From: Candidatus Aenigmatarchaeota archaeon
Lineage (GTDB): Archaea; Aenigmatarchaeota; Aenigmatarchaeia; QMZP01; JAFGSV01
Assembly (NCBI GenBank): GCA_016931255.1
Contig: JAFGFG010000005.1
Span: 7,053-71,052, forward strand
Length of the DNA stretch: 64,000 bases
Direction: 5' to 3'
A program made the translations under genes and the position numbers. Position 1 is the stretch's first letter. Every line of letters starts with the position of its first letter. Positions 1 to 64,000 of the stretch are shown here, one piece after another. Below the pieces are notes generated by a model that was given only the letters and a program-made list of their open reading frames with translations, was not told where the DNA came from and did not search any database.

Positions 1-64
1 ACGGAGCTATGCGATTTCCGTAACAGGATGGAAACTTATTATATCATTCCCTTCAAAATAAAGC

Positions 65-11084: not shown

Positions 11085-11339
11085 CAGCATGTAACAGAAT
11101 AGCTAAAGCGTAACTTATCGGGCTTGTGAATAAAAGAGAAAGTGCCCCCGCCGAGACCTGAGCAATTTGTTCATATTAGGCGTAGCTTATTGCTTCTACT
11201 ATAGAATGATTCTTTAAAAATATAACCATGTCAGATTTCATGAAAATCATGAAAAATTAAACTCTAATACATTTAAATTTAAACTTTTTGTTTTTTTTTT
11301 GCATTACGGCTCTACAAAAATTTGAGTGTTTAAACCCCC

Positions 11340-44074: not shown

Positions 44075-44152
44075 TATTCTGTAACATGCCAGGTGTTCAT
44101 GCTCTGGAAAAGCCCGAACGCCAAAAACTGAAATCATAAAAACATCAGAAAC

Positions 44153-44224
44153 GCCTCGGTGGCTCAACGGTAGAGCGGCGGTTTTGTAAACCGCAGGTTG
44201 GGGGTTCGATTCCCTCCCGAGGCT
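44153..44224 (+). tRNA. tRNA-Thr (anticodon TGT)
   Basis: Cloverleaf by hand. Acceptor GCCTCGG/CCGAGGC. D arm GCTC-AACGGTA-GAGC. Anticodon arm GCGGT-TTTGTAA-ACCGC (U33, anticodon TGT, A37). T arm GGGGG-TTCGATT-CCCTC. Discriminator T. No encoded CCA. Confidence 0.8.
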
Positions 44225-44307
44225 TGACTTCGCCTTTGATACTTTTTTTGATAATGTTTTACGTCCACATGATAATATTTATAAATAATGTGCCCGTATA
44301 ATAAACT

Positions 44308-44766
44308 ATGACATATACAGAAGTAAAGGAGAGGAATGGAAAGAGGTATTACTATAGGGTTAGAAGTATAAGAAACGGCGATAAGTTCCGAAAGGAGCGG
44401 ATATATATGGGAATTGGCCTGTCTGGGAGCGAGTTGTCTGAAAAGGAAGTGCTCGCAGATAAGAAATTGATGAAAGATAAAATAGAGATCGGCCTGAAGT
44501 CGATAAAACCGAAGATAGTCAGTGTACTTAAGAAAAACAACATCAAAAGGGCTGGAATATTCGGAAGCTATGCTCGGGGAGAACAGAAAAAGAACAGTGA
44601 CGTTGACATCTTAATTAGACCCCCAAAGAATACTGGCTTCGGGTTTGCGGGAATTGAGCTTGAACTCGAGAAGAAACTCAAGAAAAATGTAGATTTGGTA
44701 AGCTACAATGGTATAAGTCCTTACACGAAAGATCGGATTTTGCAGGAGGAAGTCAGAATATTATGA
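44308..44766 (+). CDS. minimal nucleotidyltransferase (MNT) antitoxin-type protein
   Basis: GIFGSYARGEQKKNSDVDILI nucleotidyltransferase motif. Overlaps downstream hepT by 4 nt. Confidence 0.8.
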   Translation: MTYTEVKERNGKRYYYRVRSIRNGDKFRKERIYMGIGLSGSELSEKEVLADKKLMKDKIEIGLKSIKPKIVSVLKKNNIKRAGIFGSYARGEQKKNSDVDILIRPPKNTGFGFAGIELELEKKLKKNVDLVSYNGISPYTKDRILQEEVRIL

Positions 44767-45113
44767 ATGGAAAAAATGACATTGTTTACATCAAGCACGT
44801 CATGGACAGCATAGGTGCCATAAACGATTTTTCAAGGGGGATTAGCAAGAGGGAACTAAAGACCAACAGAATGAAGCGTAGTGCGATAGTGAGGGAAATA
44901 GAGATAATAGGGGAAGCTGTCAAGAACGTTTCGAGTGCTACTAAGAACAGATACCGCCATATACGATGGAAAGAGATTGCCGGAACCAGAGACAAAATGA
45001 TACATCACTATTTCGGTGTCGATTTGGACATTGTCATGTCAATCGTAACAAATGATATCCCCATTCTGGAAAAGGAAATGCTTAAGATACTGAAAGATAT
45101 GGAAAAGTATTAA
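44763..45113 (+). CDS. HepT-like HEPN toxin (DUF86)
   Basis: RDKMIHHYFGVD matches the HepT Rx4HxY motif. 116 aa. Confidence 0.8.
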   Translation: MNGKNDIVYIKHVMDSIGAINDFSRGISKRELKTNRMKRSAIVREIEIIGEAVKNVSSATKNRYRHIRWKEIAGTRDKMIHHYFGVDLDIVMSIVTNDIPILEKEMLKILKDMEKY

Positions 45114-45175
45114 GGAAATATTTTAAGGACTGCAAGCTAAATACCTACTGTAAGAATTGAGATTATTGTCAACTC

Positions 45176-45188
45176 CCTCCCGAGGCTT
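45176..45188 (+). repeat. direct repeat of tRNA-Thr 3' end (att-like copy 1)
   Basis: tccctcccgaggcttg: 16 of 16 identical to tRNA positions 44210-44225. Confidence 0.7.
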
Positions 45189-45221
45189 GTCACTTCTATA
45201 CAATCCCGATTGATATCATTT

Positions 45222-46133
45222 TCAAGCAGACTTTAAATATTTTTTCTTTATGTAATTTATGAAAGGACGTTCTTTTTTCTCTATCTGGTATTTGTCCAGT
45301 ACATCGTAGTATTTTTCAATGTCTTCTATAGGTATATCTATTGGCGGGTATCCCTTCTTCCATAGTATCCAGTTCATGAGCAGTCTTGAAAGTCTTGAGT
45401 TGCCGTCGATAAATGGCTGCATCGATATGATTTTAATGTGGATTAGTGATGCAAGTTCAATTGGATGCAGTTTCCTGTTCTCGGACTTATACCACTTGAA
45501 GAATCTGTCGATTTCCTTTGATAACTCATTCCATTTGGGTGGGACGTAAGATGTTCCTGCTATCTTGACATTCCTTTTCAGTTCAGATCTCAACTTTCCT
45601 GCTATTGAATCGTCAACGCCTGAAAGCAGTAGTTTATGAAGATTTTTGATGAATCTTATGTTGAGAACACCTTTGTATTTGGTTATAGCGATAATTCCTT
45701 TTTCATGATTTTCAAGCTCCCTTGCTGTTTTGAGACTCTTGAAATCTTTAGGAATGAAACCCTCCCTAAGAATCAGCGAAGTTTGCCTCAGCGTTACATC
45801 AACACCCGAAAGCTTGCTACTGTCGTAAGTGAACCTTATTATGAACTCTTGGAACTTGTTATTCTTTTCAGTCGAGCTCATCTTCTTTAGCTCGCTCTCG
45901 TATTGCTCCCTTTTCGCTTCTATCTTCTTGACATCTTCGCCTGAAAGAAAAGCGTGCTTTCTCCCATCCAGATTTGCCAGGAACTCTTTTTTGATATATT
46001 CTAGTCTGTCTTTTGGTGGCAGTGTTTTCCCTATGTATTTCTTCTTCTGTAATACCTTCTTTCCAACTCTTACCGAATGTATCAGTATCCAATAATCATT
46101 CCCGTTGACCTTAATCTTCTTTGCAGTTACCAT
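45222..46133 (-). CDS. Fic/DOC-family protein
   Basis: Fic motif HPFIDGNSRLSRLL (HPFx[DE]GN[GS]R). 303 aa. Confidence 0.75.
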   Translation of the reverse strand: MVTAKKIKVNGNDYWILIHSVRVGKKVLQKKKYIGKTLPPKDRLEYIKKEFLANLDGRKHAFLSGEDVKKIEAKREQYESELKKMSSTEKNNKFQEFIIRFTYDSSKLSGVDVTLRQTSLILREGFIPKDFKSLKTARELENHEKGIIAITKYKGVLNIRFIKNLHKLLLSGVDDSIAGKLRSELKRNVKIAGTSYVPPKWNELSKEIDRFFKWYKSENRKLHPIELASLIHIKIISMQPFIDGNSRLSRLLMNWILWKKGYPPIDIPIEDIEKYYDVLDKYQIEKKERPFINYIKKKYLKSA

Positions 46134-46241
46134 GAATAATTTATGTACTACATATATTTATAAGTTTATCTTATGTACTACATGATTAAAATAAACCATT
46201 CGCCACTTTTTGTCCCGCTCCCCGGCGATTATCTATCCGGC

Positions 46242-46254
46242 CCTCCCGAGGCTT
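46242..46254 (+). repeat. direct repeat of tRNA-Thr 3' end (att-like copy 2)
   Basis: gccctcccgaggctt. 14-nt match to the tRNA 3' end. Confidence 0.65.
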
Positions 46255-46292
46255 CGTAAGTTCTCTTGATACATTTTTTTTTGTTAATTGAA

Positions 46293-46697
46293 TTATTTAT
46301 CTAGTTCCTTTATGATATTCCTGCATTTTTTTATTGCATCCTTTGCTATATCAAAATCCATTCTACTCCCATAATAAGTAAGGGAATTTCTTTTGAATCT
46401 CATGTCGTCAAATATCATATATAGGTCTTTTCTTTTGAGTGCGTCTCTCAAATAAAATCCCAGACATATATGATTCAGTATATTATATCCATCCTTGAAG
46501 GACATTGACTGCAGCAGTTCAATTAAAGACGTGTAATAATCTTCAAAGACGAAGTTGCAGTTCTTTTCATTTACTTCTCTGATCAGGTCTACTCTTTCTT
46601 TTGCTGTTTCTATTAGCGATTCTGCCCTTTTTACATCCGGAGACACACGTCTTGCTGTCATGTCATCCAGGCAGTCGTTCCAGCTTTTTTCCTTCAC
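46293..46697 (-). CDS. HEPN-domain protein (toxin-type)
   Basis: 134-aa all-helical pattern with an RFKRNSLTYYG Rx4-6H-like region. Abuts the MNT gene stop-to-start. Confidence 0.6.
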   Translation of the reverse strand: MKEKSWNDCLDDMTARRVSPDVKRAESLIETAKERVDLIREVNEKNCNFVFEDYYTSLIELLQSMSFKDGYNILNHICLGFYLRDALKRKDLYMIFDDMRFKRNSLTYYGSRMDFDIAKDAIKKCRNIIKELDK

Positions 46698-47225
46698 TTA
46701 GAAGACCTCCATATAATTGTTCATTGTTATGCCGTTTATTATGTTATTTGCCAGATTTGGGTTCGTAATTTCTCTGATGTTCTTATGCTGAAATATCTGA
46801 ATGTCCCGCTTAAGAACATTTTCAAACTTTTCAAGAGTTACACGCTTCTTTGTCGGTGTTTCTATATACAAATCTATATCGCCGCTTTCAATGTCTTCTC
46901 CCTTTGAATATGAACCGAAAACAACTATTGTGGGGTTGCTAAGTTCCCTTTTTAGATACTCTAAAAGTCCTGAGGTATACAATTGCTTTATGTTGTAAAG
47001 CTTCTTTTCCAAAATGAATTTTTCGCTTCTGCTTGCAGTGTAGAAAACAACACTTCCTGTTTTGACAGATGTCAGGACATCTTCCCTTTCAAGATCCCTG
47101 CAATACCTTATAACCGACGGCAGTGGAAGCTTTAGCGTTCTCTCAATCTCTCTCACTCTAAGCTTGGCAGTCGTGTTAACAAAGAAGTATTCGGTAATTA
47201 CTTGTTTGATATTTTTCTGTATCAT
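46698..47225 (-). CDS. wHTH-nucleotidyltransferase (MNT) protein
   Basis: VVFGSYSKGEDIESGDIDLYIE nucleotidyltransferase motif. N-terminal winged-helix-like region. Confidence 0.75.
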   Translation of the reverse strand: MIQKNIKQVITEYFFVNTTAKLRVREIERTLKLPLPSVIRYCRDLEREDVLTSVKTGSVVFYTASRSEKFILEKKLYNIKQLYTSGLLEYLKRELSNPTIVVFGSYSKGEDIESGDIDLYIETPTKKRVTLEKFENVLKRDIQIFQHKNIREITNPNLANNIINGITMNNYMEVF

Positions 47226-47278
47226 GTGATAATATATTATATCAACTGATATTTAAAGATATCGATACTTTTTATCGG

Positions 47279-47731
47279 TTACGAATCATGGCTTTTGATG
47301 TATTTTGCGTATTCCTGGTCTATACCTTTTATGTGCTGAACAAGCCAGTCTAACAGGTATTTCTTGATTTTTTCCATTAGTTTTTCAATTTCAAGTGAAG
47401 AGAAATTGCCTGAAGTCATATCTTCTTTAAGTTCCGTCTGGAAGTCCTTGTAGAACTGGATGAAATTTGCGTGTATTTTTTTATGGCCTTCGAGACCTGG
47501 AAAATCATTCTTCTCCATGTATTCCTCTTCGTAAGCAAAATGTTCTTTGATATATGTGTACAGGAAATGGCCGGTTTCTCTTAGAGACCCCATATCAACA
47601 TTTAATGATGACAGGATGTCAATCAGCTTGTTTATCTGGCCAATCAGTTTCTTGTGCTGCGTGTCAATCGTTTCCTCACCAACCGACATGGAAGAATTCC
47701 ATGCAACCTTTTTTTCGTATCCCATAATCAT
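47279..47731 (-). CDS. hemerythrin-like metal-binding protein
   Basis: IDTQHKKL, YIKEHFAYEEEYM and HKKIHANF are spaced like the hemerythrin HHE cation-binding motifs. 150 aa. Confidence 0.6.
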   Translation of the reverse strand: MIMGYEKKVAWNSSMSVGEETIDTQHKKLIGQINKLIDILSSLNVDMGSLRETGHFLYTYIKEHFAYEEEYMEKNDFPGLEGHKKIHANFIQFYKDFQTELKEDMTSGNFSSLEIEKLMEKIKKYLLDWLVQHIKGIDQEYAKYIKSHDS

Positions 47732-47796
47732 TATTTGTCCATTGTTTCTTAAACAATCGCTGCCTTTTACTCTTTCCCCATGATACCATGCCCGGG

Positions 47797-47809
47797 CCTC
47801 CCGAGGCTT
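47797..47809 (+). repeat. direct repeat of tRNA-Thr 3' end (att-like copy 3)
   Basis: cctcccgaggctt. 13-nt match. Confidence 0.65.
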
Positions 47810-47879
47810 TTGTGACTTATTCTCATCAATGAGTAAAATGGAAAAAACTTTTTAATCAAAAAAATAAAAATATATTAAT

Positions 47880-48425
47880 ATGAAACCTCTTAGGAAAGAT
47901 TCAGGTTCAGCTATAGAACGCAGGAAGGCGGGGAATACGCTTAAATCATCCGAAGTGCGGTACCGCAGGCTGTTCGAGGCAGCGCAGGACGGGATTATCC
48001 TCCTGGATTTTGATACAGGAATTATTCTCGATGTCAATAAGTTTCTGATTGACATGCTTGGCTATTCCAAAGAGGAATTCCTGAATAAGCACATCTGGGA
48101 AATCGGTGTTTTCGAGAATGTCAACACATCAAAGAAATACTTCCGGGAGCTGCAGAAGAAGGATTATATCCGTTACGAAGACATGCCGCTTGAGACCAAG
48201 GAAGGAAAAAAGATTTTTGTTGAGTTCATCAGCAATTCCTACTTCGAAAACGGCAAGAAGACAATCCAGTGCAACATACGCGACATAACAGACCGCAAGC
48301 GTGAAGAAATGGAGTCGCTGAAAGATAGAAATGAAGAGCTTGAAAAATTCACCAACTTTTCCGTTGGCAGGGAACTGAAGATGACTGAACTGAAAAAGAA
48401 GATAGCAGAACTGGAAAAGAAGTAA
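47880..48425 (+). CDS. PAS-domain protein with C-terminal coiled coil
   Basis: YRRLFEAAQDGIILLD...ILDVNKFLIDMLGYSKEEFLNKHIWEI is a typical PAS core. 181 aa. Confidence 0.55.
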   Translation: MKPLRKDSGSAIERRKAGNTLKSSEVRYRRLFEAAQDGIILLDFDTGIILDVNKFLIDMLGYSKEEFLNKHIWEIGVFENVNTSKKYFRELQKKDYIRYEDMPLETKEGKKIFVEFISNSYFENGKKTIQCNIRDITDRKREEMESLKDRNEELEKFTNFSVGRELKMTELKKKIAELEKK

Positions 48426-48532
48426 TGCATTTACCGCCGAACGTAAACCGGCGTTACCGGTTCTCCCCCTGCTTTCAAATTCTTAAGTGAAATCGTGCAA
48501 ATATGTTATTAGTAAAAACGTGGAGGAAATTT

Positions 48533-48748
48533 ATGGGAATTGAAGATTTTTTCAAGGGATGTGCAAAGAAACAGACATCAAGTGGCGGTGGATGCGGAGT
48601 AGGAATTTACATGCTTGGCTTCTTGGGAGCTCTGTTTTACTACCTTAATACTGCACCAAGCTTCTGGGTAGGTCTTGTTGGCATCCTAAAGGCACTGGTA
48701 TGGCCGGCCTTCCTTGTGTATGAAATATTTATGTTCTTTGGGGCATAG
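48533..48748 (+). CDS. small two-TM membrane protein
   Basis: MGIEDFFKGCAKKQTSSGGGCGVGIYMLGFLGALFYYL ... two hydrophobic helices. The ORF track start at 48503 is likely too far upstream. Confidence 0.35.
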   Translation: MGIEDFFKGCAKKQTSSGGGCGVGIYMLGFLGALFYYLNTAPSFWVGLVGILKALVWPAFLVYEIFMFFGA

Positions 48749-48769
48749 AACATTTCGTCGGGTTTTTGT

Positions 48770-48979
48770 ATGTTCGGACGAAAGAAGCGGTGCGAGTATT
48801 GCAAGATTGAGATAGCCAAAGGAAAGGAGATTTCCGAGAATGTTCGTGTTTACGGACGGAGCGACACACCTAAAAAGCACTTCTGCTCGGAAGATCATCT
48901 CGAAAAGTACGAAGAAAAGATAGACGCATTACTCGGAGACAGAAAACCCGGCGTGCGCTGCGGCATGTGCTTGAGATGA
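48770..48979 (+). CDS. small zinc-binding protein (TRASH/YHS-like Cys pattern)
   Basis: CEYCKIEIAKG ... HFCSEDHLEKY gives Cx2Cx24Cx3H spacing. 69 aa. Confidence 0.4.
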   Translation: MFGRKKRCEYCKIEIAKGKEISENVRVYGRSDTPKKHFCSEDHLEKYEEKIDALLGDRKPGVRCGMCLR

Positions 48980-49188
48980 AATCTGGATTCATCATGCGTT
49001 TCCTGCGTATTCACGCAGATTTCGTCGAAATATGATGGATTGAAGTTAGGATTACTGTAGAATTTTCCGGTGTTTCTGTCCACATATCCCTTCACGAACT
49101 TCTCATTGAGAGTATAAACATAATCGTTATATTCGTCTTCATCGTAATACCTGTCCTTTGCATCAGACCTGAAAAATAGATAATACAT
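48895..49188 (-). CDS. hypothetical Tyr/Asn-rich protein
   Basis: 97 aa. Overlaps the plus-strand zinc-binding ORF by 85 nt, so one of the two may be spurious. Confidence 0.3.
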   Translation of the reverse strand: MYYLFFRSDAKDRYYDEDEYNDYVYTLNEKFVKGYVDRNTGKFYSNPNFNPSYFDEICVNTQETHDESRFHLKHMPQRTPGFLSPSNASIFSSYFSR

Positions 49189-49391
49189 TCATAATTATCA
49201 CTAATAAGTAGTTAATATTAAGATTTAAGGTTCCTGATGCACGAATGATACCGTTTTTGACTGAAAAACTTCATTAAATGGTAGATTCTGTTGTTCCGCG
49301 TCACGCAGAAATATATTTCACTGCAGATAAAGAAGATGGAAATTCTTGAAAGTGTCGAATGGGCTCTAAGAAAAGCGGGATACTGGAATGA

Positions 49392-49601
49392 TTACTTAGA
49401 AAAGTAATCCCAGCTGTAAAAGTTGCCTCTTGCTGAGTGCTGGACAAATATGCCGTCAGGGAATTCAAAATTCCTTCTGATGTCATCATTCTCAACATCG
49501 CTGTAAAATCCGATTCTGTATCCCTTGCTCCCGACACCGAGTGTTATTTTCATGTATGCATCCGCGAGTTTTTCATGCATGGTCATCTTCGGTTCTTCCA
49601 T
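49392..49601 (-). CDS. hypothetical protein
   Basis: 69-aa ORF. No recognisable family. Confidence 0.3.
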   Translation of the reverse strand: MEEPKMTMHEKLADAYMKITLGVGSKGYRIGFYSDVENDDIRRNFEFPDGIFVQHSARGNFYSWDYFSK

Positions 49602-61539: not shown

Positions 61540-61691
61540 GCCTCGGTGGCTCAGTGGTTAGAGCGCCGCACATCCCTAATAAGGATTGGGTGAAGCTCAT
61601 AAGCGTGTCTTATGAGCGATGAGAAAACGTTTGTTTTCAATGACATAGCTGAGATACGCGGAGGCCGTGGGTTCAAATCCCGCCCGAGGCA
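61540..61691 (+). tRNA. tRNA gene with ~79-nt insertion (intron candidate); anticodon unresolved
   Basis: 5' GCCTCGG-TG-GCTC-AGTGGTTA-GAGC-G-CCGCA. 3' CGCGG-AGGCC-GTGGG-TTCAAAT-CCCGC-CCGAGGC-A. Normal acceptor, D and T arms. Same acceptor stem as the tRNA-Thr at 44153. The insert contains a 9-bp hairpin GCTCATAAG/CTTATGAGC and box C/D-like GATGAG ... CTGA motifs. Confidence 0.55.
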
Positions 61692-61974: not shown

Positions 61975-62589
61975 TTGAAGAAACAACAGTTGGTTAAAAT
62001 GCTTAATGAAACTGAATTAAAAATATTGTATGCCTTCTTTCCAGAGGGTACAGAAAGGACTACAAAAGAAATAGAAGACCGCTCAAGTTATTCCCATGAA
62101 CGTGCTTATTCCACACTCAAAATATTAGAAAAAAAAGGCATTTTGTTAAAAAAGAAGGTAGGAAAGGCACTTGTTTATTCAATTAAAAAATTTGATGACT
62201 CTGTTTATCTTGCGTTTACTTACTACTCATTAAATAAGAAAAATACTTTTGCAAAGAAATATTCCTCTGCTTGGAAAGCTATTGATGAATTTATCAACAA
62301 AACAAAACTGGAAATGGTTATATTGTTTGGCAGTTATTCAAAAGGAGAAGTAAAGGAAAGAAGCGATGTTGATGTTTTATGCATCAATGGAAACTCAGAA
62401 GCTGAAAAAATTGCTTTGTCTTTAAGACATAAATATAATTTGAAAATAGCTCCTGTTATTGTGGATAAAGAAGATTTCAGAAACATTAAGTCAGAGAATC
62501 CTGAACTGTGGGAAGAACTTATCAAATTCGGAATTATTCTTAAAGGGCAGGAATTATTTTATGATTTAGTTTATAGGTGGGATAAATGA
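61975..62589 (+). CDS. wHTH-nucleotidyltransferase (MNT) protein
   Basis: VILFGSYSKGEVKERSDVDVL motif. N-terminal wHTH. Overlaps the downstream HEPN gene by 4 nt. Confidence 0.75.
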   Translation: MKKQQLVKMLNETELKILYAFFPEGTERTTKEIEDRSSYSHERAYSTLKILEKKGILLKKKVGKALVYSIKKFDDSVYLAFTYYSLNKKNTFAKKYSSAWKAIDEFINKTKLEMVILFGSYSKGEVKERSDVDVLCINGNSEAEKIALSLRHKYNLKIAPVIVDKEDFRNIKSENPELWEELIKFGIILKGQELFYDLVYRWDK

Positions 62590-63122
62590 AGAAAGATTTT
62601 AATTGGTTCATTCAGGAAGGCTTGCTTTCAAAAACTCAATTCATACAGAGATTAGCACCAAGATTTATCGAAAAAGCAAAGAATAATCTCATAACACTGA
62701 GCATTCTGTTTGATCTTCACAATAACAAAGATGTAAGGGACTCTTTGAATGTCCCCGAGGATTATGATTCAAGCGAATGGGTTGTAGTTTGTGCATATTA
62801 TGCAATGTATATGGCAGCATCAGCAGCTCTTGCCAAAATTAGCTATAAGAGCAAAAATCATACTGCAACTGTTCTGGCTCTGGAAACATTCTTTGTGAAG
62901 AAACAGCTATTGGAAGAGAGTTATCTGAAGATGATTGAAAAAGCGCAACTGGAAAAACAATACATTGACAACCTGAATCTTGCAAGAGACAGAAGAGAAA
63001 TTGCTCAATACAGCGTCACAAAAGAAACGACGAGAAGGATTGCTGAGGAAATCAAGAAAGATGCTTACAAGTTTGTGGAAAGGATGGAGAAGTTAATTGA
63101 AAACTTAGACCCGAGGGATTGA
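62586..63122 (+). CDS. HEPN-like domain protein partnered with MNT
   Basis: 178 aa, all-helical, in the canonical MNT-HEPN operon position. The Rx4-6H motif is not obvious (RDRREIAQY). Confidence 0.55.
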   Translation: MKKDFNWFIQEGLLSKTQFIQRLAPRFIEKAKNNLITLSILFDLHNNKDVRDSLNVPEDYDSSEWVVVCAYYAMYMAASAALAKISYKSKNHTATVLALETFFVKKQLLEESYLKMIEKAQLEKQYIDNLNLARDRREIAQYSVTKETTRRIAEEIKKDAYKFVERMEKLIENLDPRD

Positions 63123-63124
63123 TT

Positions 63125-64000
63125 ATGGGTTTACCTAGTGCTCAAATGGTAGGAGGAAATCTTCAGGATGAAAAATTTACAAACATGTACAGCTTGTCAA
63201 AGACACTAAGATTTGAATTGAAGCCTATTGGGAAGACTCTCGAACATATCGAAAAAAAGAAATTGATACGCCAGGATGAAAAAAGAGCAGAAAGCTACAA
63301 GAAAATGAAGAGAACCATTGATGGCTTCCACAGGGATTTCATCGAACTTGCGATGTCACAGGTAAAATTAACAAAACTAAAAGCATTTGCCAAACTGTAC
63401 AATGAATCTTCAGAACGTAAAAAAGAAGATGACTTCAAGAAGAAATTCGAGAAAGTGCAGGCTGATCTGAGAAAAGAGATCGCCGAAGGGTTTAAGACTG
63501 GTAAAGCAAAGGAAACATTCTCAAAGATTGACAAAAAGGAATTGATAACTGAGCTCCTGCCAAATTGGATAAGAACACAGGAAGGACAAAATAAAAATAT
63601 TTACTTCGATGATAAGTTCAAAAGATTCACAACATACTTCGGAGGCTTCCATGAGAATCGGAAAAACATATACACTGACAAAGAACAATCCACAGCTATT
63701 GCCTATCGATTGATACATGAAAATTTACCAAGATTCCTGGATAACATCAAGACCTTTGAAAAGATTAGATTAATACCTGAATTATATAAGGAATGCGCCA
63801 TCCTGTACGAAGAAATAAAAGAATATCTTGAGATCACACGTATCAACGATGCTTTTAAGGTGGATTATTACAATAAAGTGCTCACTCAAAAACAGATGGA
63901 TGTTTACAATCTGATTATTGGTGGACGCACTCCTAAAGAAGGGCAAAAGAAGATTCAGGGACTGAATGAACAGATCAACCTGTACAACCAAAAACAGAAC
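63125..64000 (+). CDS. cas12a: Cas12a (Cpf1) type V-A CRISPR effector, N-terminal 291 aa only; gene continues beyond window
   Basis: Hand translation from 63125 is open to the window end: [74 protein letters not shown] ... [39 protein letters not shown] ... [29 protein letters not shown]. This is colinear with FnCas12a [22 protein letters not shown]...[24 protein letters not shown]...[16 protein letters not shown]...IYRIVDDNLPKFLEN...FNTIIGG...GINEYINLYSQ. Start is 2 nt after the HEPN stop. Confidence 0.9.
   Translation, partial: [292 protein letters not shown]

Follow-up and report, generated by a model that had tools for sequence, protein, structure and literature searches.

An array of gene cassettes without an integrase behind tRNA-Thr in a Candidatus Aenigmarchaeota genome

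In the genome of a DPANN archaeon of the Candidatus Aenigmarchaeota, the gene for tRNA-Thr(TGT) is followed by four small gene cassettes that are delimited by direct copies of the 3' end of the tRNA. The locus lies in a 64-kb stretch of contig JAFGFG010000005.1 (assembly GCA_016931255.1, positions 7,053 to 71,052), hereafter the window, whose coordinates are used throughout unless the contig of a relative is named. Comparison with related genomes documents the insertion, the site used and the modular structure of the cassettes, and serial site-specific insertion at the tRNA end is in our opinion very well supported. With a more moderate degree of confidence we favour a complete model, in which compact cassettes without an integrase of their own entered by serial conservative recombination at CTCCCGAGGCTT and the recombinase was supplied in trans.

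The window holds a single tRNA called by ARAGORN, the intact tRNA-Thr(TGT), and the 13-mer CCTCCCGAGGCTT comprises the 3' strand of its T-stem, the 3' strand of the acceptor stem, the discriminator and one further base. Exact copies of this 13-mer start at 44213, 45176, 46242 and 47797, all four on the plus strand and in direct orientation, just as a previous reading of this DNA made from the sequence only (hereafter the sequence-only reading) had described for the three copies beyond the tRNA. That reading counted four copies; the four exact ones stand, but the repeat search places a degenerate fifth at 48457-48474, just past the stop codon of a gene for a PAS-domain protein, hence the cassettes number four and not three. 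The same reading would have been weakened by a repeat that is a common genome-wide motif, and no exact 13-mer is found outside the array in the 64 kb; the sole other near-match, at 61680, has two mismatches and is the 3' end of a second tRNA. The repeats and their immediate borders are the following.

44153..44224, plus strand, intact tRNA-Thr(TGT), anchor of the array (attB/attL) (ARAGORN; Rfam RF00005, 71.5 bits)
44213..44225, plus strand, core copy 1, exact match
45169..45189, plus strand, core copy 2 in a longer form (TCAACTCCCTCCCGAGGCTT) that matches the tRNA-Thr 3' end of L003 and L047 over 20 nt, the T-loop variant of these two relatives included
46242..46254, plus strand, core copy 3, exact match
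47797..47809, plus strand, core copy 4, exact match
48462..48474, plus strand, degenerate core copy 5 (TCTCCCCCTGCTT) at the distal boundary with the chromosome, aligned with the tRNA 3' end of L047
48475..48750, plus strand, native chromosomal flank with the ancestral tRNA trailer and an 81-aa membrane open reading frame (ORF; 48503-48748) (alignment with L047)

The extent of the inserted block is given by L047, a metagenome contig of a relative with about 70% nucleotide identity across the syntenic CBS and kinase genes, in which tRNA-Thr is directly followed by a homologue of window positions 48480-48750 (67% nucleotide and 54% amino acid identity). In the pairwise alignment CAACTCCCTCCCGAGGCTTT of L047 stands opposite CCGGTTCTCCCCCTGCTTT of the window, and the conserved trailer TTCTTAAGTG comes immediately next in both. 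Copy 5 differs from the 13-mer at four positions, three of these within CTCCCGAGGCTT, and because it aligns with the tRNA end of the empty site in L047 we define the inserted block as 44226-48474 (4.25 kb), made of four cassettes of 950, 1053, 1542 and 652 bp. The sequence-only reading had proposed to search related genomes for an empty site, which was indeed found, but had expected the tRNA to be followed there by the PAS gene at 47880; the flank proves to be the 81-aa ORF at 48503, and since the degenerate fifth core lies beyond the PAS gene, this gene is the cargo of cassette 4 and not part of the chromosomal flank. Likewise, L067-69, L194 and L198/199 have the single core of an empty site, and a homologue of the 81-aa ORF was found by eye after the array of L070.

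The suggestion that the cassettes might deviate in composition was also borne out: the GC content at third codon positions (GC3) is 0.38-0.50 in the genes of cassettes 1-3 and 0.56 in the PAS gene, against 0.57-0.71 in the host genes on both sides. Cassette 4, which is the farthest from the tRNA and nearest to the host in composition, lies inside the segment absent from L047. The window cassettes have a coding density of 84-90% and contain no gene fragments, and at this density there is no room in them for pieces of an integrase. Low GC content (0.35-0.43) runs on for about 1.1 kb beyond the array (48475-49600), over small ORFs of 81 aa, 69 aa (zinc-finger-like) and 97 aa; because at least two of the small ORFs past the array are syntenic in relatives, low GC alone overestimates the size of the island.

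This locus breaks assemblies: the contig of the closest genome, L003 (94% nucleotide identity over 8.3 kb), stops one base past the tRNA, and the Logan contig carrying the upstream genes stops inside tRNA-Thr. Nevertheless, another Logan contig, L001, which belongs to an independent assembly of the same sample, runs from the 3' half of the tRNA through cassettes 1 and 2 to the start of cassette 3, and copies 1-3 are therefore not an artefact of assembly. In front of copy 2 stands TCAACTC; L003, L047, L070 and L072 have this variant in their T-loop, whereas the tRNA of the window itself reads TCGATTC. This extended identity with a tRNA, including the T-loop of relatives, argues for recombination between homologous sites and not for duplication of a target; either cassette 1 may have carried in 20 nt of tRNA homology, or the ancestral tRNA end may have been displaced.

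The cassettes and their contents, with the evidence for each in brackets, are as follows.

44226..45175, plus strand, cassette 1, 950 bp, 85% coding, GC3 0.48-0.50 (Pfam, NCBIfam, arm motif)
44236, plus strand, right-arm motif of cassette 1, TTGATAC..TTTTTTT (motif scan)
44308-44766, plus strand, MNT gene of cassette 1 (Pfam)
44763-45113, plus strand, HepT gene of cassette 1 (Pfam)
45189..46241, minus strand, cassette 2, 1053 bp, 87% coding (Pfam, arm alignments, homologous cassette in L202)
45210, plus strand, right-arm motif of cassette 2, TTGATATCATTTT (arm alignments)
45222-46133, minus strand, Fic gene of cassette 2 (Pfam)
about 46199-46241, B-type left arm of cassette 2, TCGCCACTTTTTGTCCCGCTCC..CCGGC (arm alignments)
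46255..47796, minus strand, cassette 3, 1542 bp, 90% coding, three genes (Pfam, NCBIfam)
46266, plus strand, right-arm motif of cassette 3 (motif scan)
46293-46697, minus strand, 134-aa UPF0332/HEPN-like ORF of cassette 3 (JGI label of homologues)
46698-47225, minus strand, MNT-like gene of cassette 3 (Pfam/NCBIfam)
47279-47731, minus strand, hemerythrin gene of cassette 3 (Pfam/NCBIfam)
47810..48461, plus strand, cassette 4, 652 bp, 84% coding, PAS-domain protein (47880-48425) (Pfam, NCBIfam)

All cassettes follow a common plan: 10-21 nt past the core comes a short right arm (TTGATAYC and then a run of T), next come one to three intact genes as cargo, under promoters of their own (on the plus strand in cassettes 1 and 4, on the minus strand in cassettes 2 and 3), and last a left arm whose final 12-13 bp, the core, are identical to the end of tRNA-Thr. 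TTGRTAY with TTTT within 5 nt occurs only four times in the 64 kb, always on the plus strand, and three of the four occurrences lie 11-22 nt past cores 1, 2 and 3. The motif is also found after the cores that start a cassette in L070, L072 and L202, and is absent from the empty-site trailers of L047, L067 and L198. The left arms of the window Fic cassette and of a cassette of L070 encoding a Cys-rich ORF match at 20 of 22 positions with the same offset (z 9.6 versus shuffles), and their right arms at 15 of 17 (z 4.0). The L196 cassette with its 151-aa ORF and the methyltransferase cassette of L070 have a second type of arm in common, with z values of 21.6 for the right arm and 5.6 for the left; this left arm recurs inside L070 and ahead of the L202 Fic cassette. 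The cargo between these shared arms is unrelated, the matches between cassettes being confined to arm or promoter sequence save for two Cys-rich ORFs and a short MNT motif in cassettes 1 and 3. Inspected by eye, the B-type left arm resembles a diverged 3' half of tRNA-Thr (CTTTTTGTCCCGC versus GTTTTGTAAACCGC), and the A-type right arm holds an inverted copy of the T-arm (GTGAGGAGTTGAACC).

Relatives, all of them metagenome assemblies, were found through homologues of the kinase encoded near the array, whose contigs were then searched for the core. The same tRNA-Thr is followed by one to three cassettes, each of 0.36-1.55 kb, in four further Aenigmarchaeota genomes, which brings the number of cassettes to about eleven over five genomes, all of them within this size range and with intact genes. 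These arrays are listed in order from the tRNA.

L070 (GCA_028279705.1), three cassettes: tRNA, methyltransferase cassette, degenerate core, ParE-like/RHH-like pair (RHH, ribbon-helix-helix), core, 73-aa Cys-rich ORF, degenerate core, homologue of the 81-aa ORF
L072 (complete genome CP070804.1), one cassette: tRNA, 361-bp cassette with a homologous Cys-rich ORF, core
L196 (GCA_964611445.1), one cassette: tRNA, 602-bp cassette with a 151-aa ORF, core with one mismatch
L066 and L202 (overlapping contigs of one sample), two cassettes: tRNA, 1548-bp transglutaminase-like cassette, core, 1049-bp Fic cassette, TCTCCCGAGGCTT, chromosome

The Fic cassette is found in two of these arrays with identical boundaries (1053 bp in the window and 1049 bp in L202; 76% nucleotide and 81% amino acid identity) and with different neighbours. 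In the window it has the MNT/HepT cassette on the tRNA side and two more cassettes on the far side, whereas in L202 the transglutaminase cassette lies on the tRNA side and the chromosome on the far side. Independent capture, loss of distal cassettes and insertion at internal cores are all possible histories, and each of them implies the gain or loss of whole integrase-less units.

The cargo is mostly of toxin-antitoxin or defence type, namely MNT/HepT, Fic and the UPF0332-like ORF with its MNT partner, and the assignments of MNT/HepT, Fic, MNT-like and hemerythrin genes in the sequence-only reading agree with Pfam and NCBIfam, while its HEPN label for the 134-aa ORF has no domain match behind it. 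In cassette 1 adjacent MNT (PF01909/PF18765) and HepT (PF01934, DUF86) genes, both above cut-offs and overlapping by 4 bp, form the gene pair of a type VII MntA/HepT toxin-antitoxin system, with NCBIfam equivalog scores below cut-off. The 134-aa ORF had no Pfam, NCBIfam, PHROGs or PDB sequence match and no similarity to the window's own PF05168 HEPN protein, and its single-sequence AlphaFold model reached a pLDDT of 45. Besides its context, the HEPN label is based on the name "UPF0332 family" that JGI gives to two homologues with about 70% identity, a family that we take to be of HEPN type, and we therefore regard this ORF as an unconfirmed HEPN candidate.

Fic and the 134-aa protein have hundreds of homologues with 67-82% identity in metagenome-assembled genomes named Nanoarchaeota, Pacearchaeota, Woesearchaeota and Aenigmarchaeota, whereas the housekeeping kinase next to the array reaches no more than 50-66% in most relatives inside the phylum, which suggests a wide horizontal spread among DPANN archaea. 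Toxin-antitoxin and defence modules of the array thus appear, as judged from these identities, to be widely shared among DPANN lineages; exact-sequence cluster look-ups returned no copies of any cassette protein at 90% identity or above. Upstream of Fic (about 46140-46190), two TTATGTACTACA elements some 30 nt apart surround a TATA-like box in an operator-like arrangement. The same pair lies upstream of a Fic with 77% identity on an unrelated, AT-rich DPANN contig (L200 7925-8000) and upstream of the RHH/ParE-like pair in L070 (12020-12070), and is a putative operator or promoter common to different cargo modules. The N-termini of the cassette 1 MNT protein (MTYTEVKERNGKRYYYRVRSIRNGDKFRKERIYMG, 44308-44420) and of Fic (MVTAKKIKVNGNDYWILIHSVRVGKKVLQKKKYIG, 46030-46133) have by eye a common KxNGxxY...R.G.K...Y.G pattern, which may correspond to a common small DNA-binding domain. 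Within cassette 3, the gap between the MNT-like and hemerythrin genes (47226-47278) holds ATTATATCAACTG and GATATCGATACTTTTTAT, which by eye resemble the end of a left arm and the start of a right arm without a core; by analogy with the interior of L070, cassette 3 may consist of two fused cassettes that lost a core at this position.

Based on these observations, we hypothesize that the entry of a cassette would be a conservative, site-specific event in which its own core recombines with that of the tRNA or with a copy already in place. Each entry would rebuild the tRNA and leave a new copy of the core behind the cassette, so that repetition stacks the cassettes one upon another. The cassette would pass through a circular intermediate, and the enzyme, most likely a tyrosine recombinase, would be encoded outside the cassettes and act in trans, its gene lying at another place in the genome or on a transient element.

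The sequence-only reading had ascribed the repeats to tyrosine-integrase elements that decayed after integration. Its first part holds, since the empty site and the GC3 values indicate that foreign DNA recombined in at the tRNA; the later decay agrees poorly with the dense coding, the lack of debris, the shared arms and the fixed boundaries of the Fic cassette. On that account, integrase-bearing plasmids or viruses would have integrated serially at tRNA-Thr and then lost the integrase and most of their genes, leaving attR copies and addictive modules. Tandem integration at one tRNA and integrated elements without an integrase are both documented in archaea (PMC8371274; PMC6563490), toxin-antitoxin cargo resists loss, and the most degenerate core copy is the one farthest from the tRNA, all as decay would have it. 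We nevertheless consider this explanation unlikely, because some eleven cassettes are uniformly 0.36-1.55 kb with intact genes and no remnant of an integrase or of any other gene, because both arms directly abut unrelated cargo, and because the Fic cassette keeps identical boundaries in two genomes while its neighbours differ. Moreover, the PAS, hemerythrin, methyltransferase and transglutaminase cargo is not addictive, and the smallest integrated element in a thaumarchaeal survey measured 2.6 kb and carried an integrase (PMC6563490).

Other known mechanisms fit the junctions less well. If the host XerA shuffled modules between dif-like sites, the missing dedicated integrase would be accounted for, and the pdif modules of Acinetobacter are indeed small, often encode toxin-antitoxin systems and shuffle between replicons (PMC13141974, PMC6449649); this seems very improbable here, as no 11-6-11 dyad exceeds shuffles at any of 14 junctions (the best 11-(5..8)-11 dyads score 5-7/11) and the repeats are direct copies of the end of a tRNA, not a series of sites in alternating XerC/D orientation. 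The integron-like alternative raised by the sequence-only reading has in its favour one module per repeat, cargo rich in toxin-antitoxin genes, and reports of integrons and CALINs (clusters of attC sites lacking an integron integrase) that include Aenigmatarchaeota (PMC9668308). A true integron or CALIN, in which an IntI-type integrase captures cassettes via folded attC sites, is however hardly credible: single-stranded folds of six junctions are no better than shuffles (z -1.7 to +0.5), inspection of the boundaries revealed no GTTRRRY/RYYYAAC pair, cassettes occur in both orientations with their own promoters (Fic with its own operator and TATA region), and no intI was found among the window ORFs scanned. 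What we favour from that alternative is the looser notion of a cassette platform at a tRNA-derived site. Casposons insert at tRNA 3' ends with 14-15-bp duplications. An equally slight chance is given to a target-specific transposase or casposase acting at the tRNA 3' end, whose target-site duplications would be the 13-bp repeats. Casposons do use fixed targets and build tandem arrays with such duplications (PMC6563490), but here scores for terminal inverted repeats equal those of shuffles in 8/8 cassettes, copy 2 extends seven bases further into tRNA identity, the arms are asymmetric, and no Cas1 or transposase domain was detected in the ORFs scanned. Finally, metagenome assemblies do break at this tRNA, but a chance repeat, a common genomic motif or an assembly artefact has a negligible probability given four exact 13-mers within 3.6 kb and no others in the 64 kb, an independent assembly spanning three of the copies, and the same architecture in four other genomes.

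Several points weigh against the model of trans-acting recombination on compact cassettes. No recombinase has been identified anywhere, with 64 kb of this genome in view: neither the seven cassette ORFs nor 30 further window ORFs (a scan mostly restricted to ORFs shorter than 450 aa) contain a Phage_integrase or other recombinase domain, in agreement with the sequence-only reading, which saw no integrase in the array, and no integrase domain was found among the genes called within 10 kb of tRNA-Thr in relatives. Neither a free or circular cassette nor a contiguous attP (left arm, core and right arm) was found. Scans of IMG/VR with the tRNA 3' half, the CCGG-prefixed core, the B-type left arm, the A-type right arm, the core plus right-arm motif and the Fic protein yielded nothing relevant, and a 14-mer scan gave chance matches only. 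The identity segment of 12-13 bp, without clear dyad symmetry, is short for the core of a tyrosine recombinase, and the arms of some cassettes are only weakly conserved (in the window, the left arm of cassette 1, and cassette 4). In addition, the array contents of some relatives are incomplete because their metagenome assemblies are broken by the arrays, and part of the pattern could be mimicked by ancient elements if these had all shrunk to one minimal form by decay and only then spread vertically.

The tRNA-Thr genes of some relatives have an extra intron in the T-loop (L067 10396-10708, L194 about 11111-11317, L196 9571-9725), and in these genes the last exon, CCCTCCCGAGGCTT, is exactly the repeat unit of the array. 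In L196, where the T-loop insert is 85 nt long, the intron and the left arm of cassette 3 of the window have TTCCCCATGAT in common (13/14 nt aligned, z 5.4), and such introns might be fossil cassette arms. The idea that they protect against integration was rejected, because L196 has both an intron and a cassette. Contig matches to a "tRNA half" (L045, L051, L055-57, L060, L064, L065) were likewise discarded as attP sites, these being intron-containing tRNA-Thr genes. In L051, L060 and L065 the 3' end of tRNA-Thr joins two upstream with two downstream flanks in three different pairings, which brought to mind an attB/attP/attL set; this was rejected since the shared 7.6-kb flank (99% identical) carries RFC, PRPP synthase and Trm56, housekeeping genes that mark it as chromosome and not as an element, and the pattern is an assembly chimera or a rearrangement at the tRNA. 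Upstream of tRNA-Thr the 5' end of the tRNA is partially duplicated (GCCTCGGTGGCTCA), and a conserved hairpin-like sequence, GGCTTT...AAAGCCCGAACGCCAAAA, comes after it (L072 10577-10634, L196 9507-9570, L067 10295-10395; degenerate in the window at about 44080-44125).

Elsewhere in the window, a second tRNA gene (61540-61691, plus strand; 3' end CCGCCCGAGGCAT) with an intron of about 80 nt scores 51 bits with Rfam and is not called by ARAGORN; no repeat of its 3' end was seen downstream. About 300 bp past it, genes for a winged helix-turn-helix MNT protein (204 aa) and a PF05168 HEPN protein (178 aa) occupy 61975-63122 on the plus strand, a further module of toxin-antitoxin type beside a tRNA but without flanking repeats, and they are followed by an ORF (63126-64000, plus strand) that runs off the end of the window and whose start presumably resembles the N-terminus of Cas12a (Cpf1). 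In L066, a different Fic (27% identical) lies between 39-nt direct repeats (1605-1643 and 2676-2714, 87% identical, AAAAATGAGTGCCGAGGGCAGGACTT...), in the position held by LeuA in the window and with no tRNA involved; it may represent a second kind of cassette site.

The genomes of DPANN archaea are tiny, few mobile elements have been described in them, and the exchange of their accessory genes is poorly understood. If the model of serial recombination in trans is correct, cassettes of about 1 kb without an integrase would gather at one fixed position of the chromosome, which would make a simple system of gene capture and a platform intermediate between classical tRNA-targeting integrative elements and integrons, with a recombinase worth finding. 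Such arrays are probably under-reported because they break metagenome assemblies at tRNA-Thr, and T-loop introns, being apparently linked to cassette arms, are relevant to the origin of non-canonical archaeal tRNA introns. More speculatively, and with rather more doubt than belief, we propose that Aenigmarchaeota, perhaps DPANN archaea more widely, maintain an integron-like capture platform at the tRNA-Thr 3' end, where a dedicated or host recombinase acting in trans would insert, excise and exchange minimal circularisable cassettes, consisting of cargo and an attP of about 100 bp (a 12-13-bp tRNA-derived core with conserved arms), and thereby spread toxin-antitoxin and defence modules over DPANN; the T-loop introns of relatives may have arisen as a side effect, from remnants of left arms that became fused to the T-loop.

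Among known systems, the tandem integration of archaeal plasmids and viruses at tRNA genes (pNOB8-type and SSV-type; PMC8371274) resembles this locus in that direct repeats of the 3' part of a tRNA bound the inserts, the tRNA is regenerated, several inserts of foreign composition reuse one tRNA, and forms without an integrase are known. Integration-derived tRNA fragments are also known in Thermococcaceae (PMC9897764). The array described here has the bounding tRNA repeats and the empty site of such elements, but its units measure 0.36-1.55 kb, possess neither an integrase, whole or as int(N)/int(C) halves, nor replication genes, have an identity segment of 12-13 bp only, and carry conserved arms placed directly on the cargo.

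None of the defining site features of integrons, casposons or dif modules is present at the locus. Integron cassettes and CALINs (PMC9668308) are likewise small units of one to three genes, each closed by a recombination site, rich in toxin-antitoxin and defence genes and gathered on a platform at a fixed site, and in CALINs, as here, the adjacent integrase can be missing; in contrast, the array has no attC hairpin, attI or intI, its core derives from a tRNA, and its genes lie in both orientations under their own promoters. The pdif modules of Acinetobacter plasmids (PMC13141974, PMC6449649) are also small, devoid of a recombinase, often of toxin-antitoxin type and shuffled in trans between short sites, but these sites are 28-bp dif-like dyads of alternating orientation on plasmids, whereas the present repeats are chromosomal, direct, and formed by a tRNA end without a dyad. 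In the cis-mobilizable elements (CIMEs) and the site-specific accretion known among the integrative and conjugative or mobilizable elements (ICEs and IMEs) of Streptococcus (PMC5704250), att sites are kept without recombination genes, tandems form at a tRNA 3' end and the integrase of another element is needed, which parallels the cores found on both sides of every cassette and the lack of a recombinase in them. CIMEs are described as decayed ICEs or IMEs of several kb, mobilized in cis with an adjacent ICE, whereas here the units are far smaller, no autonomous partner is seen in the window, at the loci of relatives or in IMG/VR, and the same arms are attached to unrelated cargo. Tandem integration at tRNA genes and integrated elements without an integrase are thus already known in archaea, and the closest functional analogues of the tRNA-Thr array are bacterial, namely CIMEs, CALINs and pdif modules.

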